From positions 19,093,648 through 19,157,647 of the forward strand of contig NC_092673.1 in the NCBI RefSeq assembly GCF_964355755.1: a DNA stretch of 64,000 nt. Reading direction: 5' to 3'. The notes under the pieces were generated by a model. That model searched no databases and was not told the DNA's origin. It saw nothing but the letters and a program-made list of their open reading frames with translations. Below are positions 4,633 to 60,593 of this stretch, piece after piece. The stretch comes from Antedon mediterranea. Its lineage: Eukaryota; Animalia; Echinodermata. Within the stretch, counting starts at the first letter, position 1, and every line of letters begins with the position of its first letter. The position numbers and the translations under genes are program-made.

Positions 4633-4668
4633 TCATGATGAAAATTGCATCAATAAAATGGCACAGAT

Positions 4669-14108: not shown

Positions 14109-14236
14109 CAAAAAGCAGCATGAAGGATGACAACATTGATATTGCAAAATATGAATTAAAAAGGGTGACAGTTAACACAGACTGACAATTGCACATCACT
14201 AATATAATAACATCATTATCAATTTGGTCATTTTTT

Positions 14237-29600: not shown

Positions 29601-32600
29601 GACACCATACTACAGTTGTATGCATTGAATTCAATTCTATGTCTCCATTTCATTGTGAACTTGTCTGTGTCTATGATAATAATTATTATTGATAATATTG
29701 TTACATAACGTATGATGGTGGGAAGAGTAATATGCTAAATGTATTCATGTTTACCACTATCAGCTTTAGCCTCTGTCCATGTTGTGCTTGCTGTTCTTAT
29801 CACCGCTATGCCATCTGTAACTACATGCTTTTCCTCAAATCTGGCAAAAATATTTGAAACCAACTATGAACTTCAGTCATTTTAAGTACAGGTACTGTAA
29901 AACATGCACTTTTCTCCTTTTACTTCAAAACCATTTAAATATATTCATTAATTATACATTTAGGAAGTCAAGTTATCCGACCATTCGTATGATCTTTTTT
30001 TTAAATACAAGCCTAAAAGTAAATTCTATAATCAATAGAAAATTTGATGGTGTTATGATTATTGTAGAAACCGATTTATATATTTATAGACGTTTTTATT
30101 CAACTATTGTTATCTATCACTGCAATATTTAAAAAGTGGTAGTTTATCAAAAACAAATCAATAAAAGTTGGCTGGCTTGTAATTCTTAGTTGACTCAAAA
30201 ATATTTTGTAATGTTCATTTCACTGTCCTACTACTACTACTTACTCTTTTCCAAGACAGGCATTGATGAGGCATGTTTTACCCACTCCTTCCTGCCCAAT
30301 TACTTTAAGCATTCCAAGATTGACTGGAACGGATCCATCTTTCAAGGCTTCATTGTATGCTTTCTGAAAATCTAATTCACGTGCAGCAATATCTGAAAAT
30401 TGAATCAAGATTTTAATAGATTTTTTAAACATCTGGAGTAAATAAAGTAAAAAAAAACTAGAATTAGGTTATATGCATTGATTTAAATAAAGATAATTGA
30501 TTTTTAAAAGATATATTGATTGATTGATTTTCTCAGAATCTTTAATTATTTATAATATAGGATCTTGCTAACGCGAATACAATAGCCGGTATCACAATCC
30601 GATCAAAGATCCCTCCGCGTATAATGTCATACAACATTGTTACATAGTAATAAAGACATTACTTACTTTTTATCTAGATTTCATTATAAATTATGTGTAT
30701 AATCTATACACTAACAAATAAAATTGAACAAACAATACGGATAATAAAAAAAAATCTTATTTCCTTTCCCAATGTTAGACTCGATCTCGGTACCTTGAAT
30801 GCCATAGACACGAGCACAGACCACCGAGCCATACACAACTGACTAAAAGTTGTAGAAAGATTCCTCCGTGTATTTACTATGCAGTAACCACTTTGGCGCA
30901 GATAGATTATTACATAACGCATTGAATTATAATTTTTTACTATGATGACATCTTTAAAAATGTTAAAAAACGATGCACTGTCAAACTATATACTTTTAAC
31001 TTTAATATATGAACTTTTATTTTGAAGGAAGAAGTTAAAGTTTGTTATTTTGGCCTTAGAAAATGTCAGAAAATTTTTGATTGTCGAAATAAATTTTTTT
31101 GAATTTAAAATGCAATTAACGATGACTTTATCAACTTTTGTACTCTTAATTTCATAATAAATCATACATATGATACATACACTTCAAGGAAATGAAATAA
31201 AAAATATGTGTTCCCGAGCATTCTTGGAAATGGAAACAATCAACTGTTATTATTTATGATAAATAAAATCTCTCCATTTGTTATTTGTTATCAGTTGGAC
31301 ACTTTTTCGCATTTTTACAGTACCGCTCAGAAATGATTTTTTAAATAACATTAGCGTCTAATTCTCTCTTTACTGAAATCCCATTTTAATCACAATTCTG
31401 TTAAATTATATATAGATACATTCATAAAACATACAGCAGCTCTTATTCTTAAACTTACCACTCTCTGGCTTAAGAAGTTTTGTTTTCTGTTTGTCACTTG
31501 TCTGTTTCTGAAATTGCTCATCAACAGTACTTGGTAAATCTAAAAAAATGCACAAAACCAAAATATTACATATTATATATTTTCATAAAAAACACTATAT
31601 TAAAAGTCATAGCTTTTTTTTTTCAATGGTATAAGGTTATATAAGGCTCTGTGTGATACAAAGCCTTACAAAAACTTGTGGGTGATTGTGTACAAGCAAT
31701 CATTCATTCTGAATAATAATAATAACAATGTATATTTTTAACTACAATGTATACAGTTAACAACTACAGTTATTAATTTAAATTATGTCCTAAAAAAAAT
31801 TGTGGAACTCAAACTCATCCAAACATATAGACGTTTGCAACATTTTTTGACAGCGATCCTGAATCTAAATCGTTGAAATTATAGCAATATACGGTTGATT
31901 AGCATGGTTTCAATGGGTAAAGTGCAAATAAAGTAATCCTGAAATGAATAACTGGTATGATTCAGAATGAGGCAGTAGGAAATGCGATTAAAAACATCTA
32001 TTGTAAGTTTTCAATATGCTTTGAACTTTTTGAATGTTTTTATTTATATTCTGTTTTATGACCAGAAATCAATTTTGTTTTTATACCTGTTTGTCAAAAC
32101 ACAATAAAGATAACTCGAGCCCAACCATGGTTTAGGCTGATGTCAAACAATTTTGTCAATATAGACCTGGAATTGCACCTTTAAAGACTTACAATAAGGG
32201 CGCTTTTCTGGTCCTACTAAAACACGCTCAGAAAACGTGCCCACTGTCCCCAGTTGTTAGTTCCCCATTATGTGTATACGCTACACTTTTGTAAATATTA
32301 ATTGTTAAAAAATTAAAAATTTAAACATCAGCCTAGAATGTACAATGTGTCATACTTGCTTGCTTGCATAATTGATTAAAAACTCTAAATGTTTGTATAA
32401 TATAAATATTTGTAAAACATACACTTTATACACTTGGTAGAGCTTAGTTATACTTTGAAGGGCTTGGTGTTTAGAAGAACACCGCCCCTCCCCCCACCAC
32501 CAATGTAATGAATATACAGTACAATTAGTTATTAGCAGTACAGCCAAGGACTATTTTAGCCTATTGAAGCAACGTTTCAGCTGGCGCTAAATTTGAAAAC

Positions 32601-35600
32601 AAAATAAATATTTGGTAAGCCTAGCCCAGTATATATATATATAGGGGCATGTCTCTAATTCCAATTCTTGGCAAAATATTTTTAAACATCATTAACACTA
32701 GAATAACTAACCACACTGAAAACAATAACATTATTTAACAAGAACAATCGGGTTTTCGCAAGGGATTCCGCACATTAGATAATATTTTCATTCTTAACAG
32801 CATAATTCAAAAATATCTACGTAAAAAAAAAAAAAGGGGTTGAATATTTAGTTGCTTCGTTGATCTAAAACGTATAAATCATAATTTTCTATTATTCAAA
32901 TTAAGAATAGGCGTAAATAATAATATATATGACGTCATATATATTATTATTTAGTTTCCAATTATTAGCGCATGTAAAAATAGGAAACTCATTAACGCTC
33001 CTATTTGAATGTTCAATTGGAATACAACAAGGGTCACCCCTGCCATTATCTCTATTTAATATATTTATGAATTACTAGCTAAATCAAAATAACGAAAAAA
33101 TACCATTCGGGGATTGCTTTATAAACCATCTGCTATATGCTGCTGATTTATTACTATTCGCAGACACAGTAAAGGCTTACAAAATTTAATAATTATATTG
33201 GAAATATTTTGTGACACATGGGGTCTTAGTGTAAATGTAAACAAATAAAAAATAATGGTATTTAAAAAAGGTGAAAAATTAAGAAAATATGAAAAATGGT
33301 ACAGTATTACATAAACATTAAAATGGAAGTTGTTAAATCGTATACTTACTTGGAAGTGGTTTTCAATTCAAATGGTAAGTGGAATAACACAACTGAACAC
33401 AATTGTCAAAAAGCAAATAATGTACGTACTATTTACAATCAATTAATAGCAAAACAAAATACCTACCAGAGAATATATGGAAACACATTTTTGACAAAGT
33501 TTTAACAATTATAATTTACGGGAGTGAGACATGGGGCTTTTCGAATTTATCACCAATTGATCATTTACAGACACGTTTTTCAAGATTTATTTTAGGCATT
33601 GGAAACAGCGCACCCAGCGTGGCTGTCAGATCAGAATTAGGCAGACTATCCTTAAACATTGATTGCTTTATTTCTATTATTCATTATTGATTACAAATCA
33701 TTGAAATGGATAAAAATAGATTTTCTTTTAAATGTTACACGTTTCAACTAAGAAAAACTAATAAAAATGAACATTGTTGGGCTAAACAAGTGAACGATTT
33801 GCTTTGTTCCACTGGCTATGGCTACGTCTGGTACGATCAGAAAGTATCAAATATATAATAAGTTTATTAATGATTTTAATAAACTATATAATAATAAATA
33901 AACTGCGAGCTACTTAGGTAAAGTGCATAATTGTTTCTCTCATTTTATCATAAATTACCATAAAACGTACATCTAAGACAAGGAATAACCTGGTTTAATG
34001 TTTTTAAAGTAATATTGCATTATTTTTACAAAACGTCGAAAATTGTAAGGAATGGGTCTTTGAAATAGATTTTTAACTCTTACTTAATGGTTTAAACTTG
34101 TATGTCAATACTAAGAAAGTTCCTTAGACTATAAAAGTTTGTTCACTTTTGTCATACATTACTATCAGATTTGGTTCTGTATTCTCAACCTTTTTTAGTA
34201 GGCCTACACCAAGCCAAGGATAAATATTTGCAATTAAATTCAATTTGTTTATGCAATATTCTATAGATATTGAATAAATATTCTCCACACACATATTAAA
34301 AATACATAAAATAATAATTATATAAACATGTAAGATAATAATTAATAAAACATAGTATGTGTGGAAGGAAACCTTAAAAGTATAACATTTTAAGCCTAGG
34401 CTCCCAGAAAAAAGTAACAAAAAGTTGGGAAGAAATAGAAACAAAATATGAATGCAATATTCTATTATTCTGTGTGTAAGTACTCTACTGAAAACTCATT
34501 AATTTATAACAACTTTTACAATTATTTAAGCGTTTATGCTCAAATATTACTTATTATTTTGTGCCTATTTGCATGGGAAGTCATAAGATAATACAATTGT
34601 AGGAGCCAAGGTAAAATACATTATGTATGATGCTTAATTTTACATACAGAGAAATAGTATTCTTAAGCTGGCTTAAAAGTATGTGAAGAAAATTCATTCA
34701 TTGTGGAAACAAAAAATGGGATTTAACAAGAGTAGTTAGTCACGTGCAACGCCACTCTACAACTCACTATGTCGGTCGGTTGGTAAACACTAACTTGAGC
34801 AAGCGACTGCAGCCATCGATATGGCCTTGTTAAATTCAATATTTATCTCCTCCTATTGTAAATTGTTTGCCTCGATTGCAAATACATATTTTAAATAATA
34901 CCATTATATATAAAATAGATTACATTTAAAAAAAAAATATTCTACATTTACATTTATATGCAATTAATAAAGATCAAATATTCCTTAACAATGCACATCC
35001 CATGTATTTGTCTATACAGGATTTTTTATTAATTTTATTAATTTATTTTTTGTATGTCTTTTTTGTAACTAGCTTGGGGTTTCTTGGAGGTCTCTTTCAT
35101 CTTCACATCTTTATTTTTTTTATGTGTAATTGTTTTGATGTATTGATGAATAAAGAGATTGATTTGATGTGAAAAATGATGTTCCATAAAAAAAACGTGT
35201 GGCTAAACTTATTCAATATTGTTAATTCAAAGTTTTCATTTTTGTGTATTTTTATTGTAATGGCAAAATAATTTTTCTAATTTATTTGCAATTTTCAAAT
35301 CATAAAAAATAAGGTTTTTACATCTTGCAGTGACATATCACAACTTCCATGTTTACTACAATCCCAGTGGATTATTTAATCTATTGCTACCTGAACATGT
35401 GAATGATATCATAAATGCTAATTTTCTAGTTTTGATTCTTCTTCATTTGGGACAAGAAATCAAATCTTTATCGCTTGTAATGAAAACTAGTTGATTCCAA
35501 AATTTTAATAATTAAAACTTCACTTACTTTTAAAGAAGTTTAAAATTTCAGTTTTTCTCTGGTCCCCTATCCACCTGTTACTTTCTAAAACAGATACAGG

Positions 35601-38600
35601 TGTATTTCCATCCTATTAAAAAAATAGGTTTAGTTACTATTAGTAGTTTTTCAGAAATTATTGATATACAATATAACACACTCTATACTCATCACATACA
35701 TACAGTATTATATCATGTCTCAAACATTTACCATCTAGAGATTGGATGAAAGAGCATCACGTGATAACACGTAGATTTACTATTTTTTAACATTGGTTGT
35801 AAATTAGGACGTGAATAGAAATTACTATTTGCTAATAAATGACATCAACTTGTACAGTGCGCCACCTATAACTCATGTATCCAAACCAAAACTTAAACGC
35901 TGCCGTTTATAGTCTACCGCCTTCAACATTGAAAGATGGGGGAGAGAGAGAGAGATAAATTGAATAAAAGTTTACTTTGGAACAGTAGGTAGATGTGTTA
36001 AAATGTTTGAGCCATAATATAAAACAACAAATAGTTTTACTATAAACTTTCAAAGCAAATAAGATTTGGATACTATCCAGAAACAAATGAAATAGGCCTG
36101 TTAAGTGACAGACCCAATCCTTCAAATTGTGATAACATTCTGAAGAAACTTTGCACAGTTATTCATTAGGGTGTCAAAAATATGAAATGGAAGGGTTGCA
36201 CAAAATTTGGTCAGGGGAAAGCCGCCATTTTGGATTTCAAAATGGCGGACCCAAATTGTTCACTTTTCAGGTATATCTCTGCTAAATAGGCACCTAGAGT
36301 TCTGAATTTAGGTGCAAATTATATGGTAATGGGGTCACCAAAGATATTGGTATAACTAACATTTTAATTGCATGGCGGCCATTTTAGATTTCAAAATGGC
36401 GGACTTAAAATTTTCACTTTTTAGGTATATCTCTGTTAAAGAGGCACCTAGAGTTCTGATTTTAGGTGCAAATTATATGGTAGTGGGGTCACCAAACATA
36501 CTGGTATAACTAACATTTTGATTCCATGGCGGCCATGTTGGATTTCAAAATTTCATTTTTCAGGCATATCTCTGCTAAAAAGGCACCTAGAGTTCTGATT
36601 TTAGGTGCAAATTATATATTAATGGGGTCACCAAACATATTGGTATAACTAACATTTTGATTGCATGGCGGCCATTTTGGATTTCAAAATGGCGGACTTC
36701 AAATTTTCACTTTTCAGGTATCTCTGCTAAAAAGGTACACAGAGTTCTGATTTTAGGTGCCAATTATATGGTAATGGGTAACCAAACATATTGGTATTTA
36801 ACTGACATTTTTATTGCATGGCGGCCATTTTGAATTTCAAAATGGCGAACTAAAAATGTTTCAGTACGGTACCTACAGTTATAATTTTAGGTACAAAGTA
36901 TAATATAGTATTGAGGTCAACAAACATATTGGTATAACGTCTTTGATTGCATGGCGGCCATTTTGAATGTAGCTCAACCCGTACTGGCTTTACACTATTT
37001 GTGTTGTTCATAATTACATGCATTTAACACGGACACTTATTGTAGGTCACATTTTCCCTGGCAACCACACAGCTCTGTGCATCGTAAATCACTCTTTCTG
37101 CATTTACAGCATCCAAGATCACAGTCGGTGTGTCCACAGCGAATTAAAACCTTTGTGACATCTGAAAGTTCCGGCAATGAACTGCAAGCTGGACAAAATT
37201 TGTTGCCGTCCTTCCTCTATCCCCAGTTCGCTGGGTCCTGTTAAACCCAGAATGCATCTAGACAGTCGTACCACTTCCTGGCTTCCGTTTCACATGTTCT
37301 CTTAATGCCGCAGATGTTGGGGGATATTTTCAATAGTCTTTCTCTTGTTGTAAAAAGATATCGTCTTGCATCATTAAATGTTCTGCAGTAGACATAGTTA
37401 CAACAAACTGTTCTAGATAATCTGTGTCTGTTTCACTAACATGCCCTACAGACAATTACATCCTCTCAAAAACTGGAGTCATATATGGCATCTTTTTCAA
37501 AGTCTCGGTAGCCTAAATGTAGCTTTACCTTTTCCTTAAACAGATGAAGTTCTATCACAACCGCTAATGGTATGAAAGAACAAGTAAGCGGCTGATGCTT
37601 GTGATCCAAGAGAAGTAATCTTGTGTATTGAGAAACGGTCTTTTCTACAAGCCAGAAAGTGGTACAACTGTCTAGATGCATTCAGGGTTGAACAGGACCC
37701 AGCAAACTGGGGATGGAGGAAGGACGGCAACAAATTTAGTCCAGTTTGGAGTTCATTGCCGGAACTTTCAGATGTCACAAATCGCTGTGACACACCGACT
37801 GTGATCTTGGACGCTGTAAATGCAGAAAGAGTGATTTATGATGTACAGAGCTGTGTGGTTACCAGGTTTGAGCTACATTCAAAATGGCCGCCATGCAATC
37901 AAAGACGTTATACCAATATGTTTGTTGACCTCAATACCATATTATACTTTGTACCTAAAATTATAACTGTAGGTACCGTACTGAAACATTTTGAGCTTGC
38001 CATTTTGAAATTCAAAATGGCCGCCATGCAATCAAAATGTTAGTTAAATAGCAATATATTTGGTGACCCATTACCATATAATTTGCACCTAAAATCAGAG
38101 CACTGTGTACCTTTTTAGCAGAGATATACCTGAAAAGTTATTGGGGTCCGCCATTTTGAAATCCAACATGCAATCAAAATGTTAGTTATACCAATATGTT
38201 TGGTGACCCCATTACCATAATTATAATTTGCACCTAAAATCAGAATTCTAGGTGCCTTTTTAGCAGAGATATACCTGAAAAGTGAAAATTTGAAGTCCGC
38301 CATTTTTAAATCCAACATGGCCGCCATGCAATCAAATGTTAATTATACCAATATGTTTGGTGACCCCACTACCATATATTTTGCAGGTAAAATCAGAACT
38401 CTAGGTGCCTCTTTAGCAGAGATATACCTGACAAGTGAAAATTTGAGGTCCGCCATTTTGAAATCCAAAATGGCGGCTTTCCCCTGACCAAATTTTGTGC
38501 AACCCTTCCATTTCATATTTTTGACACCCTAATGAATAACTGTGCAAAGTTTCAAAATGTTATCACAATTTGAAGGATTTGCCTAAAATATGCTCCTTAA

Positions 38601-41600
38601 CATGCCTACTATGTATAATCCCTGTACATTACCTTCTTTGCAATGTTGCTGGTGTATAATACTGACAACAAACATTATGTGAAATTGGGTTTTTTTTTGT
38701 CAACCCAAACCATAGCAAAAATTACTGCTAAATAATGTGGTAAATAATCATAAATGTCGACTATTGATAAATGAAAACAAAATATAATATCTTACCATGG
38801 ATCAAATGTAGTATAGTGTCATTAAAATCTACTTACTGTACAATATCAATCACAAAATTTGAACATTAATAATTTAATACATATTTTATAAAATTGTACA
38901 AACAAATGTTTAGATGTTAAACATCATGTATGAGGCCAATATAAGCAGTTAAATGAATTTACATATAAATTTAGGTAATGGGAAATTTCAGTAAATTAAG
39001 TGCAACTTCTAGAATTTTTACTCAATGGTAGAGAAAGTTGGTACATACTTTTGGTACTGATTTTTAACACCCAATGAAGCCATTATCATAATTTAGCTAT
39101 TAAGATATTAGATATTAACGATTAAAACAAATTTAGGTTAAACCATTTTCCTCAATGAAGATCATATCATATCATGAAGCCTGATACCATCCCATCATCA
39201 AATGTACCAAGACAGGAATTTGGTGAACAATACCATGCAATAAACAAAATTAAGCTAATTCTCTGGGTGACAATTATATTTGAATACATAAATTCCATCA
39301 TATCTGTATTCATTTGCTTTGTGTACAGTGCAATTTCAGTTATTTACCAAAATTCATGTATTCGAGAACCATCTGTGGGCACTTACTAGTATATAACATT
39401 TTAACTGGCAACTTTATAGAATCATTTTTTCCAAAAAGTCATAAGATAAGATACGGCACTGTTTGAAAAGAATAATTTCATGTTAAATTTCTTTTTCCAA
39501 TTGCATTGCTCAAACATTTTTAGATTTTGGAAACCACTATGAACTAAACATTATTTACATTTCTCTTCCATTTGTGACAAAATGTTTGCAAAAAAAAAAT
39601 CTGGAAAAGGATCTCTTTAAGGCCATATTCAAACTGTAATTAGCTGGATATACTGACAGAAGTATTTTTTTTTGGAAGGTAAGGGAGGGAGCAGGTTATT
39701 AACAATTACTAATTCTTTTTTATTAAAATCAGATTCTATTAATTTTGTTAACAATAACACAAACATATTTGTTTGCTATTTTATTATTTGTCAACATACT
39801 GTAGTTGTCCAATTTTATTTCATATTTATAATTAATTAGACCATTTTCAATTGTTGTTATCTTTACAGCTACATATGAGCAATATGTATTTATTTTATGG
39901 TAAAAAATATTTAAACAAAATTATACTAATTCACCTGAATATAAAAAATTACAAGTAGATTGTTTTTGTTCATTAAGAAAAAAGATATATGTTATTTGAT
40001 GGATAACTGTATACTTTAAATCAGGAGTGGAACCAGAAATAAACATTATATATAATTGCTCTTTTTGATGACAAATTCAAAATGGAACTGAAATCAGGGT
40101 ACCCAGGAGCGGAACCAGAAATAAACATTATATATAATTGCTCTTTTTGATGACAAATTCAAAATGGAACTGAAATCAGGGTACCCAGGAGTGGAACCAG
40201 AAATAAATCAAAAGCGGGAGCAAAGATTACTTTTGGCTGGGGGTCATTTGCTTTCTGAGCAATTTAGTTTGTTTCAAATGGTTTAAGCACATAACTATAG
40301 TATAGTCAATTTCCAATATACTAATAATCATAATCATGAAGTTTATAAATACTGACAACAGACATTATGTGAAATTGTTTATCTGTAAATAAAAAAAACA
40401 GCAATAATTACAGCTAAATAATGTGGTAAAAATCCTATTTGTTCTTATTGATAAACAAATAGAATGGTTTACTGCAGAGAATGGTAGCCTACTACACTAG
40501 CAAATACCTGTGGATTACCTTATTTTGCAATGTTACTGCAGATCCATTATGCTTTAAGAGACAAGTCACTATATCTAAGGTAGGATTTACTGTACTCAGA
40601 TATTCATGTAATGGAGTGTTCCCATCCTGGAAAGGAATAAAAATAATAAAGTTTATAAATACTGACAACAGACATTATGTGAAATTGGTTTTCTGTCAAT
40701 ATAAACAACAGCAAAAATTACAGCTAAATAATGTAGTAAAAAATCATATTTGTCATTATTGATAAATAGAATGGTTTACTGCAGAGAATGGTAGCCTATT
40801 ACACTAGCAAATCCCTGTGGATTACCTTATTTTGCAATGTTGCTGCAGACGCATTATGATTTAAAAGACAAGTAAGTATATCTAAGGTAGGATTTACTGT
40901 AATCAGATGTACATGTAATGGAGTGTTCCCATCCTGGAAAGGAATAAAAATAATAAAGTTTATAAATACTGACAATAGAAATTATGTGAAATTGGTTTTC
41001 TGTCAATATAAACAGCAGCAAAAATTACAGCTAAATAATGTAGTAAAAAATCATATTTGTCATTATTGATAAATAGAATGGTTTACAGCAGAGAATGGTT
41101 ACCTACTACACTAGCAAATACCTGTGGATTACCTTATTTTGCAATGTTACTGCAGACGCATTATGCTTTAAAAGACAAGTAGGTATATCTAAGGTAGGAT
41201 TTACTTTACTCAGATATACATGTAATGGAGTGTTCCCATCCTGGAAAGGAATAAAAATAATAAAGTTTATAAATACTGACAACAGACATTATGTGAAATT
41301 GGTTTTCTGTCAATATAAACAACAGCAAAAATTACAGCTAAATAATGTAGTAAAAAATCATATTTGTCATTATTGATAAATAGAATGGTTTACAGCAGAG
41401 AATGGTTGCCTATTACACTAGCAAATCCCTGTGGATTACCTTATTTTGCAATGTTGCTGCAGACGCATTATGATTTAAAAGACAAGTAAGTATATCTAAG
41501 GTAGGATTTACTTTAATCAGATGTACATGTAATGGAGTGTTCCCATCTTGGAAAGGAATAAAAATAATAAAGTTTATAAATACTGACAATAGAAATTATG

Positions 41601-44600
41601 TGAAATTGGTTTTCTGTCAATATAAACAGCAGCAAAAATTACAGCTAAATAATGTAGTAAAAAATCATATTTGTCATTATTGATAAATAGAATGGTTTAC
41701 AGCAGAGAATGGTTGCCTACTACACTAGCAAATACCTGTGGATTACCTTATTTTGCAATGTTGCTGCAGACACATTATGATTTAAAAGACAAGTAAGTAT
41801 ATCTAAGGTAGGATTTACTTTACTCAGATATACATGTAATGGAGTGTTCCCATCCTGGAAAGGAATAAAAATAATAAAGTTTATAAATACTGACAACAGA
41901 CATTATGTGAAATTGGTTTTCTGTCAATATAAACAACAGCAAAAATTACAGCTAAATAATGTAGTAAAAAATCATATTTGTCATTATTGATAAATAGAAT
42001 GGTTTACAGCAGAGAATGGTTGCCTATTACACTAGCAAATCCATGTGGATTACCTTATTTTGCAATGTTGCTGCAGACGCATTATGATTTAAAAGACAAG
42101 TAAGTATATCTAAGGTAGGATTTACTTTAATCAGATGTACATGTAATGGAGTGTTCCCATCTTGGAAAGGAATAAAAATAATAAAGTTTATAAATACTGA
42201 CAATAGACATTATGTGAAATTGGTTTTCTGTCAATATAAACAGCAGCAAAAATTACAGCTAAATAATGTAGAAAAAAATGATATTTGTCATTATTGATAA
42301 ATAGAATGGTTTACAGCAGAGAATGGTAGCCTACTACACTAGCAAATCCCTGTGGATTACCTTATTTTGCAATGTTGCTGCAGACACATTATGATTTAAA
42401 AGACAAGTAAGTATATCTAAGGTAGGATTTACTTTACTCAGATATACATGTAATGGAGTGTTCCCATCCTGGAAAGGAATAAAAATAATAAAGTTTATAA
42501 ATACTGACAATAGACATTATGTGAAATTGGTTTTCTGTCAATATAAACAGCAGCAAAAATTACAGCTAAATAATGTAGTAAAAAATGATATTTGTCATTA
42601 TTGATAAATAGAATGGTTTAGAGCAGAGAATGGTTGCCTACTACACTAGCAAATACCTGCAGATTACCTTATTTTGCAATGTTGCTGCAGACGCATTATG
42701 CTTTAAAAGACAAGTAAGTATATCTAAGGTAGGATTTACTTTACTCAGATATACATGTAATGGAGTGTTCCCATCCTGGAAAGGAATAAAAATAATAAAG
42801 TTTATAAATACTGACAACAGACATTATGTGAAATTGGTTTTCTGTCAATATAAACAGCAGCAAAAATTACAGCTAAATAATGTAGTAAAAAATCATATTT
42901 GTCATTATTGATAAATAGAATGGTTTACTGCAGAGAATGGTAGCCTACTACACTAGCAAATCCCTGTGGATTACCTTATTTTGCAATGTTGCTGCAGACG
43001 CATTATGATTTAAAAGACAAGTAAGTATATCTAAGGTAGGATTTACTTTAATCAGATGTACATGTAATGGAGTGTTCCCATCCTGGAAAGGAATAAAAAT
43101 AATAAAGTTTATAAATACTGACAACAGACATTATGTGAAATTGGTTTTCTTTCAATATAAACAGCAGCAAAAATTACAGCTAAATAATGTAGTTAAAATT
43201 TTAAATTTTTAATTTCAATGAAAAGAATTTTTTTAATTATTATGAAAATATATATATATTTTTAATACCTCATTGATAGATGTCACAAGATCTGGCTGTG
43301 TTCTACAAATGTGTTTAATTGTTTGAAAATCATTCCTATGCAAAGCTTCTTCTAATTCGTTCCTGTTTAAATGATTATAAAAGGTTATAATGAACTGTTA
43401 CATTATTTTATGAAAATGACGATTGATGGAAATAATATCATCACTAGAATTTAATTCGTCACTTTGACGAATTATAGGTGATCATTTTTATCATTTTACT
43501 GATATTAATTTTTTTTTTTACATGCACGTACGTTAACATACGATCGGAAAATGTTGATGTATGCCATCCTATTATACGCTTATAGTGCTGAGTTGTGCCT
43601 ATTATATGCCATATACAATAATGTACAGTATATAATGTATATCTATATACAGTGTAGCATAGGTGAAATTATGGGACACATCATGTTCTAATTTTTTGGT
43701 ATGATGGAATTATCAAAATAAACTCGAAATGGCAATTTCGAAAGATAATAAATTGAGCAAATAAATATAAGAATTGGAAGCGAATTTGGCACATAGAAGC
43801 GCTGTGCGCGCTCTTTGAAATTTGTATAACTTTGACGAAAAAGATGAAAAAACTACTTTTTAAATTCAACTGGCCATATGTTAACGTCACAACATCCGAT
43901 AGGCTTGATTTTTATATGAATTCATATCTATATTTCATCAGCTTTCATAATAAATTGTAATCATCAAGGTAACCGTCAATTCTGAAGAGCTGTAAAATAT
44001 TCAAATTTACGGCGAAGGTGAAATTACACGACCTACATTATTCAAGTTTATACGCGTGATGACGTCATCGAAATAAAAATAGTGGGAAATCATGAGAAAG
44101 TCAATTAATTGAGCAATCACATACTAAAATTTGAGCGAAAATCGGGTACAAAATAACAGAGATGCGTTCTATTGAATGTGACAAAATATGACGAAAGAGA
44201 AAAAAAACTTAATTTTAAATTCAAGTGGCCATTCGATGACGTCAAAACATTTTGTACGTACAATGTGTACATGTATTCATATCTACAACTCAATGGCTTC
44301 CAGAATAAGTTAAAAAAATTGGGGGTCATCGTGCATTCTGGAGAATTATTTTCATTTTAAAAATGCCTTATTTTTCACCATTTTCAGAACTTTGATGCAA
44401 TTATTTTGCTCATTTTGTCATTTTGAACCTGCTCGTATAGCGTTATTTTAAGTCGGAACTGACTCAAATTTGGTGAATGTACTAAGGATGGTGAGTAGAA
44501 TGCGATTTGTAAAAAAAAATCGTATTTTTACGCTTTTTAAGTATCGCTTTTTAAGTGGAGCACTGTGGCGCAGTGGTTAGAGCATTGGACTTGCAATCAA

Positions 44601-47255
44601 GAGGTTGTCGGTTCAAGCCCCGGCTTGGTCACTGCAGTGTTGAGTCCTTGAGCAAGATTCTTTATCCACATTGTTCCTCCCCACCCAGGTGATAGAAATG
44701 GGTACCGGTATGTAAAAAAGTACTGGGAAGGTAAATCAGACTCGTTTGTGCGGGAGGAGTGGCGTACCCCCCACAACATACACACTTAGTGGAGTCTGGC
44801 CCAAACGCTATGGAAATGGAGATGGGCACCACGGCCGTTAGCATTAGCTTAGGTTTCGACTTTACCTTTTTTTTTTTTTTTTTTAAGTATCGCGCGCGCA
44901 AAAATTATTTTTTGCGCAGTAATTTTTTGAAAAACGCAAATTCATTGATCAAAACTTAATTTTGAACTTTTTAAATTTTTAAAGAGCGATTTCACGCGCA
45001 TGACCCTACGTACGTATTCGTTTTTTATTTGGTAATATTTTTAGCCTTGACCTGAAGTTTACGTGTAGTGAATTTCATTAATATGTGATAATGAATTATG
45101 GAGATATGATTGATAATGTGATTTCACAAAATGGCGTATAAATGACGTCACGGATGAGTGATCACGCTGAAAAGCTTATTAGGATTAAGTTATATTATTT
45201 GAAAGATACTAGATGGCACGCTCGCTTCGCTCGCGTACCATCTAGGGGTGCTCACAGATGGTTCTCGAATACAGTAGAATCCACGGACGGGGACTTTTTT
45301 GGGACACTAAACAAAAACGGAAGTGTCCCCCTAATTCAGAAATAGAGACAACAAAACCAATACTGGATTCCATAAAGGACAATTAATTTATGTGGATTAA
45401 AGAAATTAGGGAGAAATGGAAATGTATGTACGGGAATTGGGCGGCACGTGGTGGTGGTGATGGAACCGCAGTAATAAAGTTGATTGTATTTATATATTAT
45501 AAGAACCAAACTAAATAAATAGACCTAGACATTCTGCGAAATGGAAATCGGAAATTCAAGCTCCTATTCAGTGAAAAATTAAACTGTAGTCTACCTAAAT
45601 ATTTAGGGCAAATCATCGGTTGTGGTGTTGAAATTCCTGTAAACATTTGTGTGAACCAAACTGGGTCGAATTTCTGTCATGAGTACTGATTTGTTGGCCT
45701 GTGATTTATGACGCCTAAGGGATCTATCTAGACTTATTTTTTAGAATAATGTACGTACCTGTCAGATACAATTGTCTTGTGTCGTATAATAAATAAGTAC
45801 TGTAATAGTTACTGAAGTTACTATTACAATCTCGTCAATGAAAACACGAAAATGTATATGCACTTACTTATGAAAACGTATACAGTATTATACTCAGTTA
45901 TTGAAACAGTATGTTTTAAAAAAAGTTTCGTTTGTCTGTAAAATGATGTAATCAAGCTGTTTACATGAGTCTTAATTTATAAGCACATCAATAATAAAAT
46001 AGTTTATCTATCCTGTAATTGGCGAGATTATGGTCGCTGTTGAATGAAATAAAGCCAATCGGTATCATATTTGTACAGAAACGTTTTCGCGGCCGAAGGG
46101 TGTAACCTAAATTCGTTGTATTATCGTCAAAAACTAACTGTAACTAAACTTACATAGAAAGTAGGGTATCATAAATTTGGCCTTAGCACTCGGGGGAGTG
46201 GCTAAGATGAAGTCCGTGGGACTACTAAATATAAATTGTAATGAACCTCGAGGGACATAAATAGGAATATTTCATGTTTCATTATCAATGTATAATAAAT
46301 GGAAACTGTTTACCGATTCAAATAATAGAAATTGGTTTTTAACATATTCCGAACCTATTGCAAGTTTATTCTCAAAGGGCCCATATATTTACCTACCGTA
46401 TGTGTTAAACCAAGGGCTCATAAATTTACCTACAGTACTTGTGTTAAACCAACTCTGGCAGACTGAGAGATTGGGATGTTCCATTCATCGCAAATCAATA
46501 CATTTGTATAATCGTATATTAAATCTATCAAAATAGTATTTTTTAAAGAAAATCGGCCTGTCTTCAACATTATGATGGTGTACTCTAGCTGTTCAACCGG
46601 TTTTCAGCTATTAAAAACAATTATCGTAGGAGGAGATAGAAAAATGCGAAGCCTCCTCGCATTTTTTTGGCGGGTATTTTTCAAGATGGACATCCATTAG
46701 ACAGTGTATACCACGATCGGAAAACACCCCTATTTGGGGCAAATCGTTGAACCTAAATTCGTTTTAATCGTCAATAACTAATTATCTAACTCAATTTAAT
46801 TAGTAAACAGGGTTACATCAGGCGGTTAAAATCAGTACCGAAAGTACGAACCAACTTTACATACCATCGAGTGAAAATTCTAGAAGTAAGGCGCGATTTA
46901 CCGAATTTTGCCCTTACGTAAATTTATATATAGATTATGAAATTTTGGTAATCATTGACATTAAACTTTTTGAGATAATTGTTACACAAAATAGTGTACA
47001 GAAACAATAACATTAAAGATTTGATACAATAACAATAGCTGATCATTTTATTCTAAATGATCACCTAATTAAATTTGATGAGAATGGGCCCTTTAATTGT
47101 AATATTTATGTCGTAATCTTTTAAGAAAATTTGAAAAGTAATTTTTCTCAAAATAATATCTTAAATTGTTATCTTTTTCATTTAAACTATAAATTAATTG
47201 AAGGTTAATCTGTTTGATTTGAAATAAAAAAAATTAAAAAAACGTACCTTTCCAT
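20150..47255 (-). CDS. Multi-exon kinase-less Roco protein: ankyrin repeats - Roc GTPase - COR - tandem DED (about 1210-1290 aa to the end of the DED exon; 3' end uncertain)
   Basis: Hand-spliced GT-AG exons, phases all compatible, no stops: 47248-47255 (ATG), 43269-43362, nine 108-nt ANK exons in 40519-43082 (two with mutated acceptors), 35528-35612, 31459-31539, 30245-30392, 29755-29840, 29357-29421, 28990-29071, 27837-27994, 27052-27141, 26696-26875, 26279-26536, 25731-25925, 24821-25015, 24323-24628, 24087-24158, 23152-23365, 20830-20862, 20150-20686. Motifs DGNTPLH, GQEGVGKT, TDGI, WDHGGQ, VGTHK, LNFLYDLGEI..VVLDP. Confidence 0.88.
21040..22912. repeat. 88-bp intronic minisatellite, about 21 copies (variant units at the right end)
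   Basis: ORF track repeats every 88 bp; unit gtaagaggaatgaagatatcacagctaatagcagcatgttgtaacaatgtatagattatcaataatgattctgatagtactactactg. Confidence 0.97.
23152..25925 (-). CDS. COR domain exons of the Roco gene
   Basis: LLNFLYDLGEIVY..LSDKVVLDPMRL, GILEEDLLRKLW..FLVALMIQFGFI, FFVPL, YYDFEGYLPDVLFPYLI and the Cys-rich end RCIPCRC are typical COR signatures following Roc. Confidence 0.85.
26279..30392 (-). CDS. Roc (Ras-of-complex) GTPase exons of the Roco gene, with an acidic insert between G2 and G3; the last exon runs into COR
   Basis: G1 LKVIGQEGVGKT (30245-30392), G2 VTDGI (29755-29840), G3 FNIWDHGGQLIYHGLHRMFMTLQALYIVVFDLS (27837-27994 and 27052-27141), G4 ILIVGTHKG (26696-26875), G5-like YFAIEN and PLKW (26279-26536). 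Confidence 0.9.
27237..27568. mobile_element. MITE family A copy (opposite orientation)
   Basis: ttaa|agatgtattgtccccc...ggggacaatacat; the body is the reverse complement of 18123-18466. Confidence 0.8.
28595..28905. mobile_element. MITE family A copy (degenerate)
   Basis: tgtccccttgaaaaaat...ctgccagccaatgg...catgttttttggggacaata. Confidence 0.75.
32700..33900 (+). mobile_element. Degraded non-LTR retrotransposon reverse-transcriptase fragment (RTEX/CR1-like)
   Basis: Frameshifted motifs EQSGFRKGFRTLDNIFILNSII, GIQQGSP, NHLLYAADLLLFA (YADD equivalent), YGSETWG, RSELGR. Confidence 0.85.
36093..38608. mobile_element. Foldback derivative of an Academ DNA transposon
   Basis: TAGG..CCTA termini; inverted arms of about 1 kb with aaaatggcgg subrepeats; internal remnants FFHTISGCDRTSS.GKGK, QDPANWGW..LPEL and CKCRKSDLRCTELCGC. 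Confidence 0.85.
38620..38790 (-). pseudogene. Relic of the 307-bp ankyrin unit with most of the exon deleted
   Basis: ccctgtacattaccttctttgcaatgttgctg joined directly to intronic atactgacaacaaacattatgtgaaattgg; acceptor and TPLH codons are missing. Confidence 0.7.
40021..40206. repeat. About 88-bp tandem duplication, about 2.2 copies
   Basis: caggagtggaaccagaaataaa recurs at about 40022, 40105 and 40186. Confidence 0.8.
40340..43195. repeat. 307-bp tandem repeat, about 9.3 copies (108-nt exon plus 199-nt intron)
   Basis: Exact 307-bp periodicity of 'ggattaccttattttgcaatg' and 'gtgttcccatc'; intronic parts are near-identical between copies. Confidence 0.97.
40519..43082 (-). CDS. Nine tandem phase-0 ankyrin-repeat exons (108 nt, 36 aa each) of the Roco gene
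   Basis: Exons 42975-43082, 42668-42775, 42361-42468, 42054-42161*, 41747-41854, 41440-41547*, 41133-41240, 40826-40933, 40519-40626. Consensus DGNTPLHV[HY]L[IS]KVNPTLDILTCLL[NK]HNASAATLQNK, bounded by tttccag| and |gtaatc. * marks acceptor cag changed to caa. Confidence 0.9.
44557..44884 (+). mobile_element. tRNA-derived SINE, apparently full length
   Basis: A box TGGCGCAGTGG, B box GGTTCAAGCCC, core gtccttgagcaag...cacccagg...aaatgggtacc, tail actttacct(T)n, flanking duplication tttttaagtatcgc. Confidence 0.9.
45208..47070. mobile_element. Possible Helentron-associated/unclassified non-autonomous element
   Basis: 5' hairpin ctagatggcacg..cgtaccatctag and 3' stem-loop tgatcattttattctaaatgatca; no coding remnant recognised. 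Confidence 0.3.
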
Positions 47256-47562
47256 TGCAAAAATACAGTGTCTTCATTTAACATTTATTAATGCCGATAG
47301 CTTCTAGTGTAAAAGTAAGCCTACTCATTCTCTTCTGAAAATAGAAAAGGTAAACATTTAATCTTTCCTGGTATGTAAACTATCTGTATTTCTATCTAAA
47401 CTATCTAAATGCCTATTGAAGTAATATACCATAATATAGATGTTTCTGATGCTGGCTGTTTTACTTTGTCGTTTGGATTTAGCTTTTGCTTATTATATGT
47501 GTACATTGAGATACAGCTACTGATACTCACAACAATGTCATTTTGTTAAAATATAAGTTTAA

Positions 47563-47910: not shown

Positions 47911-48373
47911 TTAAATGTTCATATCTCCAACTCTGTAGCCTGAGGTTTTTAAATGTTCATATCTCCAACTCTGTAGCCTGAGGTTATTAAATGTTCATAT
48001 CTCCAACTCTGTAGCCTGAGGTTATTAAATGTTCATATCTCCAACTCTGTAGCCTGAGGTTATTAAATGTTCATATCTCCAACTCTGTAGCCTGAGGTTA
48101 TTAAATGTTCATATCTCCAACTCTGTAGCCTGAGGTTATTAAATGTTCATATCTCCAACTCTGTAGCCTGAGGTTATTAAATGTTCATATCTCCAACTCT
48201 GTAGCCTGAGGTTATTAAATGTTCATATCTCCAACTCTGTAGCCTGAGGTTATTAAATGTTCATATCTCCAACTCTGTAGCCTGAGGTTATTAAATGTTC
48301 ATATCTCCAACTCTGTAGCCTGAGGTTATTAAATGTTCATATCTCCAACTCTGTAGCCTGAGGTTATTAAATG
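47911..48373. repeat. 38-bp minisatellite, about 12 almost identical copies
   Basis: Unit taaatgttcatatctccaactctgtagcctgaggttat, head-to-tail with no spacers. Confidence 0.97.
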
Positions 48374-49138: not shown

Positions 49139-50334
49139 GCTTACTGGATATACAAATGGAATGGAAACTTCAGTATTATCAGACTGTTGAACATAAAACT
49201 GGTGAAAGTGTATACATACTGACAAGCTATTCCAGCAGAAACATTTTATATTTCAATATTACTGTATGCGTTTCATACATACAACATGTATAAAATATAA
49301 TCCCATCAGACAAAAACATTAAAGGCTACGACAATTAACTTGCATCTGTATGCTGGTGTTACTGAATGAAGATGAAAATTGTAGTCTTTGTTCTCACACT
49401 ACATACTTCTGCTGGATTAGATCAAGCAAAATTTATGTGTCTTGTGTTGTTTAACTGTACTGTTTATTTGTAACCTTCAAATGACAAAGAGCTTAAAACG
49501 TCAAATTACTGTAATGAAATAAAAACACACACAGTCACTAACAATAAATTCATAAAGAGTTGGTGGTATTGGTAACCATAACTTACCCTTGTAGGTTCAT
49601 GTCTGAATATTCCTCCAATCCCTGGTCCATCGTCAAAGGTGTTTATTGTTATGCTAAGTGCCAACACCCTGTTTACAGCGTTCTGTGTGTCACATGACTT
49701 TGTGAGTCAGTCTTGCATACTAGAAAATAACAGAAAATATAAGTTGTCAACTTATATTATTATTATAAGTAGTTTCTATATACAGTACTTCATATTAACA
49801 AAGAACAACCTTTTGTAAAGAACATGTTAACTAGAGCATATGAAATCATTTTACTACACAATTGGCATCTGGATATTGTCCAGGCAAGTTGGTTAAGTCA
49901 ATAAAAGAGTGTATACACAATAGCAAGGCACACTATGATATCATGGTGGAAATAAATAATGTAATTTTTTTTATTTCCTTCATGATATTACCAAGTATTT
50001 AAATTCACAAATGATTATTCTTTGTGTTAGTTGTAAACAACATGACATTTTTTTAATGAATATTTCAGTGATACCCTCACAGCATTCTAATTCCGATTTC
50101 AACTAATCCTCTTCTGGATGTCACCATAGGAAATAGAATGCTGAGGATGGTGATAGGTGACACTGAAATATTTGTCAACAATTGTTGACCAGTTTTATCC
50201 GTATCCTGATATTTATATTATTTATTAACTTAATTATTAAATAATTTATATAAATTTAAATGATATATAATAAACAAAAACCACAACAAGCCTGTTCACT
50301 GTGCATTTTACCATTACCGTTTCTGAACCAATCA

Positions 50335-50971: not shown

Positions 50972-52990
50972 TTAATGGATTTCAGTATACAGGAGCAAAT
51001 CTGTCATGCTTAAAGACCCCTTCCCTGCAATTTTGGACGTTTTTTGGAAAATAATACATATATATCACTTTAAAAACATTAAACCATGTCATTCCTTGTC
51101 TTAAATGTACGTTTTATGGTAAATTATGATAAAAAGTGAGAAACAATGCACTACCTAAGTAGCTCGCGGCGATCGACCTCTCGTGGACGGTCTTAGGCCT
51201 AGCCTAGCTAGGCTTAGTTTTGTAGGCCTAGCTTGTAAACATCGATAACGTACGAACATCGTACGCTAGCTATATACCTAGCCTGACGTTGTATAGTTGC
51301 TGCATTAATTGTCTTTTTATTTTTGCCAGACTCCGTTGATACAAATTGGGGAAAACCCGGTATTTTCGCTGAAAAGTTAGGAGTCTTCCATTTGTTTTGG
51401 CTTCACGATCGATCGAAAAGTGGGCGAATTACAGGTGAAAAACAAAAATATCAATCCGCGCGCAATGCATTTTGGGATTTATAGCGGGCCGCTATAATTA
51501 TTAGAATCGATTTATTTTTCACATTTTTAACCGTTTAAAGACGAAAAAAGTTATCGCAATAGGACCATATAGTATTATTTTTACATTAAATATAGTTTGT
51601 GATCTTAAATTAGATCTAAAAAACGTAGGGAATGGGGCTTTAAATTAAACTGCAAAAACTATCCTATTTAGGACATTTTTTTTTAATTGTCTACAATTCT
51701 TTAAAAAGAAATTATATATTCTTTGTAATGCTAGCGACTTGAGTGTTTAAACTTAGAATATCTTTTTTTAAATTTATATATTGTACACATAAGGCCAAAA
51801 TATATATATTTGTGTAAATACTTTATTTGTCACTCTCATAATATAATAATATAAAAACTTCATTAACAATTATGACAAAACAGACCAAAACAAATCAGTT
51901 TTCGCTATTCGAGTTTTGGCCCTTAACGTAAAATGCATTAATTATTAACAAAATTTATTGTAAAGTTTAATTAAATAAGTTAAGTAAAGTTATATACTTG
52001 TTAAGCGTCAATTTCAGGGGAGGGAAGGTGTACTATATTTCAATAGATCATCGACATTGATTTATGCTACCATTTAGAAATAAACCGACAACTCTTTCAA
52101 ACATGAACAAATGTCAGAATCACTATACTGTATACATCTTTAAAAACTAAAGAAAAAATATTTAATGCAATAAAATTGTAACAAAGATTAGTTGCCCCAA
52201 GTCTGTAGTTTATATTCTCTTTTTTATGTTCGTCCACCGGATAGCGTTTCAATTTTTTTTTGGAAACTACTGTGTTTTTTTTCTCGATGATCTATCAATT
52301 AGCATTACACGTATGAAACGCCATATGTGGCAATATACTTAGCTTTTTACTAACATTATGTCAAAACACATTCTAGAACCTACCTGTAGACTACCCAAAT
52401 ATCTGAAGTTGACATACTAAACTAATTGAAATGAGAGAACTCACTCATTAGACAGATGTGATGAAGAAAATAACAGAAATTGCTTGACATGAAGAGAAAA
52501 GGAAAAATTAAAATGTGAAAAAATATTAATAGGTCAATTTGACGATGATAATTATTAAATTGTCAATTCCCAAAGTGATTTATTTTTAAATCTTTAGTAC
52601 ATTCTTGTAATGATATTTTGTCTATTTTGTAATAACATATTGATTGATATTCATATTTAGTTATTGTTAACAATTACTTTATCAACTGGAATTTATTACA
52701 ACTTAACAATATAAACACCCAAGAAAATGGCCTGGTAATTAGATTCCAATATTTTTAGTTAAATTTCCCAACAAAAACGAGAAATATGTTAATTTATACA
52801 TTTTTGGAATGTATATCATTATTATTTATCATTTTTTCAGAACAATAATAAACGATATAATGGGTACATAACATATATATTGCATTTTTTTATGAATTCA
52901 TTTTTTTACGTCTCTTTGGTGTACTATGGAAACCTCTGGTTTGCAAAAAAAAAATGTTTTGTATCACCTTTTTTAAACCTAATCATCATT
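50972..52990. repeat. Segmental duplication copy 2 (5' intron of the Roco gene)
   Basis: Same colinear match to 2346-4632; this copy carries an extra TTAA-flanked element at 51014-51639. Confidence 0.93.
51014..51639. mobile_element. TTAA-flanked non-autonomous element (Kolobok-type), absent from the paralogous site
   Basis: ttaa|agaccccttccct...agggaatggggct|ttaa; the empty site is at about 2383-2392. Confidence 0.88.
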
Positions 52991-55800: not shown

Positions 55801-56316
55801 CTTTATGCATAGAGATATTGTAGTGAACTATTATATATAGTTATAATATCTCTATGCTTTATGTATAGAGATATTGTAGTGAACTAATATTATATATAGT
55901 TTTAATATATCTATGCTTTATGCATAGATATATTATAGTGAACTATTATCTATAGTTTTAATATATCTATGCTTTATGCATAGAGATATTATAGTGAAGT
56001 ATTATATATAGTTTTAATATATCTATGCTTTATGTATAGAGAGATATTATAGTGAACTATTATATATAGTTTTAATATCTCTATGCTTTATGTATAGAGA
56101 TATTATAGTGAACTATTATATATAGTTTTAATATATCTATGCTTTATGTATAGAGATATTATAGTGAACTATTATATATAGTTTTAATATCTCTATGCTT
56201 TATGTATAGAGATATTATAGTGAACTATTATATATAGTTTTAATATCTCTATGCTTTATGTATAGATATATTATAGTGAACTATTATATATAGTTTTAAT
56301 ATTTCTATGCTTTATG
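55801..56316. repeat. About 56-bp minisatellite, 9 copies; unit is a palindromic CATAGAGATA..TATCTCTATG element plus 7-bp ctttatg
   Basis: The array starts and ends with ctttatg; unit termini match the 10196-10221 footprint. Confidence 0.92.
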
Positions 56317-56625
56317 TAAAATGAAAATAATTAAAAATAAAATAAACAAATCCCAGTGATTGCTTGTATTGCTGCTCTTAAATATTCCAGTATTGTTGTT
56401 ATAATAAAATTACTTAAGTCATTTTTGTTGTTTTTTTTTAATTACTCAATTCACTTTTCTTCTGATTAGTTTTAATTTTAACATCTTTTACTTATGGGTA
56501 CTTCCCATTTCTTTTCCCCTTTCTCATTGTTTAATTTAATATTGTCTGTTTTTGTCACATTTTGTGTCACTGATTCAAAGGTGAAAGGTCAACAAATAAA
56601 TAAACTGCATTTAAACCAATAAACT

Positions 56626-60480: not shown

Positions 60481-60593
60481 ATTATTAGTTTCATTATTTC
60501 TTTTTGTTATTGCAGTCCATTGTTTATTTGCATCGTTATATAATTGCATTAATGTTGAACTATAAACCACTGCAACATCACCTCTACTTTTTC

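Follow-up and report, generated by a model that had tools for sequence, protein, structure and literature searches.

The window analysed here, a 64-kb stretch (64,000 nucleotides) of the crinoid Antedon mediterranea, carries on its minus strand a predicted Roco gene with a 307-bp tandem array in its N-terminal part and, upstream of it, an exon that probably belongs to a paralog. The features are listed below in window coordinates, with the basis of an assignment in parentheses.

60594-61118, minus strand: DED-DED exon, likely a late exon of an upstream Roco paralog (tandem cluster)
47248-47334, minus strand: likely start exon with 5′ UTR and ATG at 47255, ending in phase 2 (AG/GT boundaries; first residues match the P0012 N-terminus)
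43269-43362, minus strand: N-cap ankyrin exon, phase 2 to 0 (identity to P0012)
40332-43198, no strand assigned: whole tandem array, unit of 108-nt exon plus 199-nt intron (TRF, unit spacing)
42975-43082, minus strand: ankyrin exon 1, type A
42668-42775, minus strand: ankyrin exon 2, type B
42361-42468, minus strand: ankyrin exon 3, type B
42054-42161, minus strand: ankyrin unit 4, type A, acceptor AG to AA, likely skipped
41747-41854, minus strand: ankyrin exon 5, type B (Pfam Ank scan, PDB search)
41440-41547, minus strand: ankyrin unit 6, type A, acceptor AG to AA, likely skipped
41133-41240, minus strand: ankyrin exon 7, type B, carrying a Leu20Pro change in the predicted second helix
40826-40933, minus strand: ankyrin exon 8, type A
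40519-40626, minus strand: ankyrin exon 9, the last of the array and the most divergent, with 8-11 differences to the other units
38617-38770, minus strand: relic unit, intron part and exon end retained, acceptor and most of the exon deleted (blastn)
35528-35612, minus strand: C-cap ankyrin exon, phase 0 to 1 (phases; identity to P0037)
31459-31539, minus strand: linker exon, phase 1-1
26696-30392, minus strand: ROC GTPase region in seven exons, including P-loop, G3-like and G4-like motifs
23152-26536, minus strand: six COR exons (Pfam COR-A, E = 4e-7 on one exon ORF; identity to P0001)
20150-20862, minus strand: 33-nt linker exon (20862-20830) and tandem DED-DED exon (20686-20150), the last assigned

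TRF resolved the array into 9.3 copies of 307 bp with 95% matches and 0% indels, and the unit-to-unit spacing is exactly 307 bp in 8/8 intervals. As the preliminary description had stated, there are nine units, each with an open 108-nt minus-strand exon (from 43082-42975 down to 40626-40519) that is in phase 0 in 9/9 cases and codes for one 36-aa repeat; the GT donor is intact in all nine. The predicted domain is ankyrin, judging from the TPLH motif at the start of each repeat, from Pfam Ank matches just below the cut-off in both unit ORFs scanned (E = 5e-4 and 7e-3), and from DARPins as the top PDB matches of one array exon (best E = 0.003). The nine repeats comprise only six distinct peptides, and their mean identity of 90% (n = 9) exceeds the threshold for HIC repeats (>85% identity over at least 100 aa; PMC4986451). 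Exon 9 has E8, T12, and V20 in common with paralog repeats. In a tblastn search of the repeats across the window, the nine minus-strand units were the sole significant matches, none lying on the opposite strand or elsewhere, and an Rfam scan of the window returned no match.

Two of the nine units (42161-42054 and 41547-41440) have lost the acceptor (AG to AA), which leaves only seven canonical cassettes; the AG one base downstream, if used, would lead to a stop at aa 151, and skipping of these two units is likely a side effect. The relic unit at 38617-38770 matches the array at 81% over 113 nt and at 89% over 36 nt (blastn). Neither the two acceptor-dead units nor the relic had been recognized in the first reading of the array.

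The flanking N-cap and C-cap exons join the array to the Roco exons, and the array is thus in frame with them. Start and N-cap exons together are identical to P0012 at 32/34 aa, the model beginning three residues ahead of the N-cap as P0012 does, and the C-cap is identical to that of P0037 at 20/28 aa. The proteins closest to the gene model come from A. mediterranea, and over 714 aa it is 95% identical to P0001; its exon ORFs give weak Pfam Roc matches, and the near-identical P0001 lies above the Roc cut-off. GTPase motifs (P-loop, G3, and G4) fall at aa 374, 508, and 594 of the model, and the DED-DED exon at 20686-20150 matches Pfam DED in two stretches (E = 2e-10). No N-terminal kinase domain is present in the model. 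With nine, seven, or no repeats the model runs without a stop (1286, 1214, or 962 aa); the claim of a frame kept by every exon takes no account of the two units with dead acceptors. The attribution of the array to an animal Roco was borne out: as predicted from sequence, the gene is a crinoid Roco of the layout ANK-ROC-COR-DED-DED, stop-free, with ROC then COR in one reading frame. The DED-DED exon at 60594-61118 (68% to the P0001 C-terminus; Pfam DED, E = 9e-6) was considered as the N-terminus of the array gene and rejected, since it matches paralog C-termini and the start exon matches P0012.

Two contigs assembled from reads bear on splicing. One X8 contig skips exactly the 186-nt GT..AG intron between the N-cap and unit 1, and in one X9 contig the end of an ankyrin exon is joined in frame to the start of an ankyrin exon; each joint is a single contig in one of four runs, not listed for the other three, with a shorter side of 25 letters (the bridging mark being 31) and placed at 80% likeness. 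Neither run is recorded as RNA (for X8 an RNA origin is a guess), the contigs may stem from paralogs, and they were compared with the N-cap and unit 1 only. An X8 contig (study P3) also covers the 307-bp period with an intron variant unique to one array place, and the amino-acid states at positions 8, 9, 11, 20, 25, and 28 recur in contigs from both organisms compared.

The units of the array are recombinant mosaics. In units 1-8, 19 of 78 informative site pairs were incompatible by the four-gamete test, and units differed on average at 5.8 sites at distance two vs. 10.7 at distance one, giving a two-unit period. Mean pairwise identity among units is 97.0% for introns and 96.0% for exons, in agreement with the earlier statement that introns are as similar as exons and that amplification was recent, with exchange between units. 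Such identity is not the mark of a special device: ten other tandem arrays with 91-99% matches (9.3 kb together; TRF) share the window, one of them (88 bp x 21) inside the array gene, and because of them intron identity only dates the expansion. Variable sites are equally dense in exon (7/108) and intron (15/199) of the array (P = 0.82), and none of the seven exon changes is synonymous (0/7, P = 0.16), which amounts to no selection signal. Variable array residues do not cluster on the surface (P = 0.18-0.73), the surface and turn residue sets having been chosen after inspection of the alignment, a choice of which the sliding-window test alone is free. The two dead acceptors, the Leu to Pro change, and the relic suggest weak constraint. 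The array is young and nearly neutral in its behaviour.

The same cap-repeat-cap layout was found in three paralog models obtained by a ROC-COR profile search: P0012 (two repeats), P0037 (two, without an N-cap), and P0080 (eight, on another contig, with ROC-COR-DED also present); these counts come from automated models, some of which may be partial or fused. When a single repeat was used in a word-based search, it gave one candidate and no match, an insensitive result that missed all three. On a single A. mediterranea contig lie 24 of the 41 family matches, and this repeat type occurs in only 2/24 RefSeq models there; most RefSeq models of the closest paralogs lack the ankyrin part, and two of the closest begin in an apparent retroelement fragment. 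Pfam ankyrin matches were found in 8/41 relatives scanned; domains seen in others were kinase, DED, Death, TIR, CARD, Macro, or Neuralized. A FastTree built from 21 repeats recovered one group for each of P0080, P0037, and P0012 (support 0.90, 0.94, and 0.79) and another for window units 1-8 (0.63), and unit 9 adjoins the P0012/P0037 repeats. This grouping by gene supports separate amplification in the paralogs. The window gene itself looks chimeric in comparison with automated protein models: its N-cap matches P0012, and its C-cap and ROC match P0037 (the ROC start is identical at 86/100 to P0037 vs. 27/79 to the ROC behind the P0012 N-cap).

Variation in P0080 is localized. Its repeats are 82% identical over residues 16-36 vs. 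47% over residues 8-15, and the most variable five-residue window is 11-15 (permutation P = 0.004), the repeats being nonindependent samples and loops being tolerant of change anyway; P0080 is known as a protein only, which precludes dN/dS. In its AlphaFold model (pLDDT 81.6; best Foldseek matches ankyrin-1 and AnkB), the variable block maps to the end of helix 1 and the following loop. P0080 serves as a structural stand-in for the array, its repeats being ~72% identical to those of the window. The proposal of ligand-surface diversification accordingly fared unevenly, the array giving no selection signal and P0080, rather than the window array, supplying its best sign in the form of a variable block.

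The analogies drawn earlier with the repeats of brown-algal ROCOs and fungal NLRs, both candidate immune receptors, hold in the accessible parts of the two reports (PMC3341825, PMC4986451). Brown-algal LRR-ROCOs are described there as a multigene family with one LRR per 72-nt phase-2 exon (Zambounis 2012, PMC3341825; Teng 2024, PMC11378527), for which positive selection and splice variants have been demonstrated (PMC3341825, PMC11378527). As far as these excerpts go, they share with the array gene repeats N-terminal to ROC-COR, symmetric exons that each hold a single repeat, active exons interspersed with inactivated ones, paralogs that differ in repeat number, and membership of a multigene family; the array gene differs in having ankyrin instead of LRR, 108-nt phase-0 exons, C-terminal DEDs, exon and intron coamplified as a near-perfect satellite, and no inverted exons found in the window. 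Fungal NLRs carry ANK, TPR, and WD repeats with high internal conservation (Dyrka 2014, PMC4986451; PMC13449251, both in the portions available). With the crinoid genes they have in common near-identical repeats that group by gene, possible signs of intergene exchange, localized variable residues (in the crinoid, in paralog P0080), and an NTPase switch with an effector domain. However, their switch is NACHT/NB-ARC, whereas the array gene has a ROC-COR GTPase, an N-terminal sensor, a C-terminal death-fold, and repeats split by coamplified introns; variable sites lie at the helix-1 end and the helix1-helix2 loop in P0080 vs. inner helices and hairpin in the fungal proteins; and repeat-number polymorphism has been measured in fungi, the crinoid contigs available being collapsed. 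Sea-urchin SpTransformer (Sp185/333), so far as the sources available describe it, is likewise a clustered, repeat-rich echinoderm family with mosaic internal repeats, but it is an unrelated protein of small two-exon genes with a demonstrated immune role. DAPK1 is a single polypeptide with a kinase, ankyrin repeats, ROC-COR, and a death-fold domain. The array gene has the last three in common with DAPK1 and other metazoan ankyrin/death-fold Rocos and differs in a model without kinase, in a tandem DED, and in belonging to an expanded gene cluster with ankyrin cassettes that are nearly identical. ROCO diversity in Trichoplax (PMC11378527) and a TIR-ROCO in Aplysia (PMC9334734) appear in the accessible parts of other accounts. 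In the main texts of the open-access literature, we found no report of ankyrin-exon Roco arrays in crinoids or echinoderms.

We think it fairly probable that the array is the N-terminal ankyrin domain of this gene, and that germ-line recombination resets how many repeats it has and in what mix. The 307-bp units, each of exon and intron, would undergo unequal crossover and gene conversion, and the changed repeats would give this predicted intracellular sensor a different binding surface; the process would be ordinary tandem-repeat turnover, as in the neighbouring intronic minisatellites, acting on a frame-neutral coding unit. Crossover between paralogous arrays may also move the sensor between ROC lineages, and over longer times variation would gather at the helix-1 end and the lengthened helix1-helix2 loop. 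By analogy, ligand binding might operate the ROC-COR GTPase switch and send a DED signal to death or immune adaptors. Possible, though tentative, is the wider proposal of a crinoid NLR-like variable-receptor system on a GTPase chassis, in which the satellite-like ankyrin exon cassettes of a Roco-DED gene cluster multiply, undergo conversion, and are exchanged among paralogs and ROC lineages, a hypervariable loop is under selection, and the repertoire of intracellular recognition differs per individual, hidden by repeat-masked annotation.

The ninefold expansion in a real ANK-Roco may instead be just another minisatellite burst at a locus rich in satellites, tolerated since exons in phase 0 leave the frame intact, with repeat number nonadaptive. 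The matching density of variable sites in exons and introns (P = 0.82), the dead acceptors, Leu20Pro, the relic, and the ten other young arrays fit such a neutral by-product, which we nevertheless consider rather unlikely: a paralog encoded on another contig has its own amplification of the repeat type, with a localized variable block and a conserved second half, and the states at the six amino-acid positions recur in contigs of both organisms. That the array is misassembled or its exons unused, as the RefSeq models without an ankyrin part might suggest, is very improbable given structured differences among all eight full units, the X8 contig with its place-specific intron variant, the intact reading frame, and the same modules in paralog models.

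Other sources of diversity would act within one animal. Combinatorial alternative splicing of cassettes as the main source would be helped by the common phase 0, by which any subset is in frame, and has a parallel in LRR splice variants of brown-algal ROCOs (PMC11378527, in the part available); we regard it as improbable, since the six peptides are on average 90% identical, near-identical splice sites and introns leave little for regulation, and ordered skipping would chiefly alter length. Programmed somatic rearrangement in immune cells, as hypothesized for Ectocarpus ROCOs, draws on analogy (PMC3341825, as far as available) and on how well a near-identical tandem array would lend itself to mitotic recombination. 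Such rearrangement seems the least probable of all, as tblastn of the repeats gave no significant match beyond the nine units on either strand of the window, signal sequences were not noticed, and germ-line turnover accounts for all observations.

If the variable-receptor reading is true, a deuterostome would share with fungal NLRs and brown-algal ROCOs a sensor strategy based on repeat shuffling, here with a Roco GTPase as carrier of the ankyrin cassettes, and the poorly understood expansions of invertebrate Rocos would gain a testable role. On the more modest reading, too, a sensor domain can be mistaken for satellite DNA, and because so few cluster models (2/24) contain the repeat type and two of the closest start in an apparent retroelement fragment, such domains may be underannotated.

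We examined the tandem array at 40332-43198, for which Tandem Repeats Finder returned a period of 307 (9.3 copies, 95% matches, no indels) and in which unit-to-unit spacing is exactly 307 in 8/8 cases. On the minus strand, each unit consists of a 108-nt open phase-0 exon encoding one 36-residue repeat and a 199-nt intron, with a GT donor in 9/9 units; together with the Tandem Repeats Finder result, this exon reading confirms the nine single-ankyrin-repeat exons of the preliminary description. Both unit ORFs scanned (n = 2) matched Pfam Ank just below the cut-off, and the best PDB matches of one array exon were DARPins. Introns are indeed as similar as exons (average identity among units: 97.0% and 96.0%, respectively). 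The acceptor AG is replaced by AA in units 4 and 6, and a shift to the next AG, one base downstream, would introduce a stop codon at residue 151, so that splicing likely passes over both units. The proposition that any repeat number keeps the frame holds for the reading frame itself, with stop-free models of 1286 aa (nine repeats), 1214 aa (seven repeats), and 962 aa (no repeats), but is qualified by these two dead acceptors.

The array is immediately preceded by an N-cap exon (phase 2 to 0), with a start exon farther 5′, and is followed by a C-cap exon (phase 0 to 1). The full model comprises start, N-cap, repeats, C-cap, linker, seven ROC exons, six COR exons, and, at its 3′ side, a DED-DED exon. 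GTPase motifs are kept in the joined model, which is 95% identical over 714 aa to the RefSeq protein model P0001; the window gene is a Roco with an ankyrin domain. Its N-terminus, deduced from sequence, was later met independently in the RefSeq model P0012, where an equal start and N-cap (32/34 aa) are followed by two repeats of the window type and a C-cap. The first residues of P0037 correspond to translated sequence from the end of the intron preceding the window ankyrin exons (41855-41869), an indication that this paralog shares the exon boundary and has a homologous intron. The first 30 residues of P0001 and P0004 match 33570-33659 (minus), inside 33421-33858 (plus), where plus-strand ORFs antisense to this start resemble a LINE reverse-transcriptase tail; the first exon of both models is likely false, standing in place of the ankyrin part. 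The DED exon at 60.6-61.1 kb is likely part of an upstream paralog, and an exon-like stretch at 49587-49723 (minus; 14/16 aa match to the last residues of P0009) could represent either a 5′-UTR exon of the window gene or a 3′ exon of that paralog. Candidate 3′ exons after the DEDs occur at 18882-19095 (minus; low-complexity ORF of 18-bp repeats) and about 17140-17250 (minus; hydrophobic stretch with in-frame stop). The C-terminal tails of P0012, P0014, and P0009 are hydrophobic and transmembrane-like.

Relic unit and other elements in the window
38617-38770: relic unit, most of exon deleted
36116-38579: element of ~2.4 kb composed of 153-bp subrepeats and remnants of Cys-rich ORFs; inverted arms long, 84-89% identical
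249-1459: convergent ORFs; on plus, a transposase-like C-terminus; on minus, an ORF with a P2RX7_C domain (E 5e-11)
2386-3290 / 51644-52521 and 4177-4633 / 52523-52989: interspersed duplication, two blocks, 84-89% identical
58451-58951, plus: zf-RVT retroelement fragment (E 1e-8)

Between the relic unit and the C-cap exon, the insertion at 36116-38579 resembles what is left of a foldback DNA transposon, and the convergent layout at 249-1459 is reminiscent of Kolobok-type transposons.

Among units 1-8, 19 of 78 informative pairs of the 22 variable sites failed the four-gamete test, and mean differences were 5.8 between units two apart and 10.7 between neighbors. Both results fit growth as a dimer of two unit types, A and B, with exchange among units. 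Unit 9, at the array edge, is the most divergent and the nearest to paralog repeats. As a control, ten further tandem arrays were found within the window (9.3 kb in total, 91-99% matches), one of which (21 x 88 bp) sits in an intron of the window gene; intron identity therefore dates the expansion but marks no special device. The window is rich in young minisatellites, which occupy 12332-16648, 21040-22916, 47911-48373, 55801-57565, and 59581-60481 and have periods of 38-88 bp, 8-22 copies, and 93-99% matches. For the proposed diversification of a ligand surface, no selection signal was detectable in the array: variable-site density did not differ detectably between exon (7/108) and intron (15/199; P = 0.82), all seven exon changes alter the protein, yet P = 0.16, and variation was not concentrated on the presumed ankyrin surface (P = 0.18-0.73). 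The register for this last test came from the DARPin PDB matches of one exon and from DARPin positions. The dead acceptors and Leu20Pro point to weak constraint. Expansion as a neutral by-product is a possibility to be taken seriously, although we doubt it.

Parts of the Roco region are present in nine runs; no record marks any of the nine as RNA, and for one of them, X8, RNA is a guess. Contigs of four runs were compared with the N-cap exon and unit 1 only. A single X8 contig omits precisely the 186-nt GT..AG intron between them, and in a single contig of run X9, as we read it, the end of one ankyrin exon continues in frame into the beginning of a second, whose helix 1 is variant. Their agreement to the base with predicted boundaries hints at splicing at these exons; each joint is absent from the listings of the other three runs compared, both contigs have a short side of 25 letters, under the bridging mark of the tool, and both may derive from paralogs. 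Splicing as the main device appears improbable. An artefact or pseudogene is less credible still: another X8 contig, from a run in which DNA is possibly present, extends across the 307-bp period and carries an intron variant that occurs at a single place in the array, which disfavors misassembly. Somatic rearrangement of cassettes we rate as the most remote of these explanations.

All 11 proteins retrieved with a COR-region query are Antedon mediterranea RefSeq models that lie on a single 36.2-Mb contig (identity up to 91%), which assigns the window to a feather star of Antedon or a nearby genus. Searching with a ROC-COR profile yielded 41 hits (32 in A. mediterranea, 24 of them on one contig; seven in Anneissia japonica; one in Ptychodera; one other), and 150 best hits against a representative library. 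The window repeat type occurred in 3 of 180 proteins examined: P0012 (two repeats), P0037 (two), and P0080 (eight), the last an A. mediterranea ANK-ROC-COR-DED protein from a different contig. The Pfam scan covered 41 of 44 proteins with at least 90 residues before the P-loop; ankyrin hits were found in 8/41, and other domains were kinase, DED, Death, TIR, CARD, Macro, Neuralized, KIX/TAZ, FN3, NHL, and LRR. Domain shuffling is wide among relatives of this ROC-COR clade (including Neuralized-ROC-COR-Death-TIR, CARD-FN3-ROC-COR-TIR, ROC-COR-caspase). Whether paralogs have independent arrays, a check proposed earlier, was addressed with a 21-repeat tree in which repeats cluster by paralog, window units 1-8 likewise together, as expected from separate amplification or homogenization. 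In P0080 repeats (37-38 aa), identity is 47% at residues 8-15 vs. 82% at 16-36, the most variable five-residue window being 11-15 (P = 0.004). An AlphaFold model (pLDDT 81.6), for which Foldseek ranks ankyrin-1 and AnkB highest, places this block at the helix-1 end and a lengthened helix1-helix2 loop; it is only suggestive of diversification, since loops tolerate change and repeats are non-independent. The window N-cap resembles that of P0012, but the ROC behind the latter is distant (27/79), and the window C-cap (20/28) and ROC start (86/100) resemble P0037. Judged from automated protein models, which may be fused, the window gene looks chimeric, as crossover between paralogous arrays would make it.

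The likeness to one-LRR-per-exon ROCOs of brown algae (PMC3341825, PMC11378527) and to NLRs of fungi whose ANK repeats are highly conserved (PMC4986451, PMC13449251) is upheld as an analogy of working. The window gene has neither LRR nor NACHT/NB-ARC and hence belongs to neither group. NLRs of the highly conserved repeat type also occur outside fungi, animals included, according to PMC13449251. The literature searched (mostly open-access main texts without supplements) held no crinoid report of such arrays.

With cassettes of this anatomy, a frame open at any repeat number, mosaic units, and gene-specific repeat groups, we consider it reasonably probable that array turnover and sensor swapping serve a predicted ligand-GTPase-DED signaling pathway. 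Unequal crossover and conversion in the germ line would reset the number and composition of the repeats, and the same processes would exchange sensors between paralogs; the ankyrin domain would bind a variable ligand, the ROC-COR switch would react to binding, and the DEDs may then recruit death or immune adaptors.
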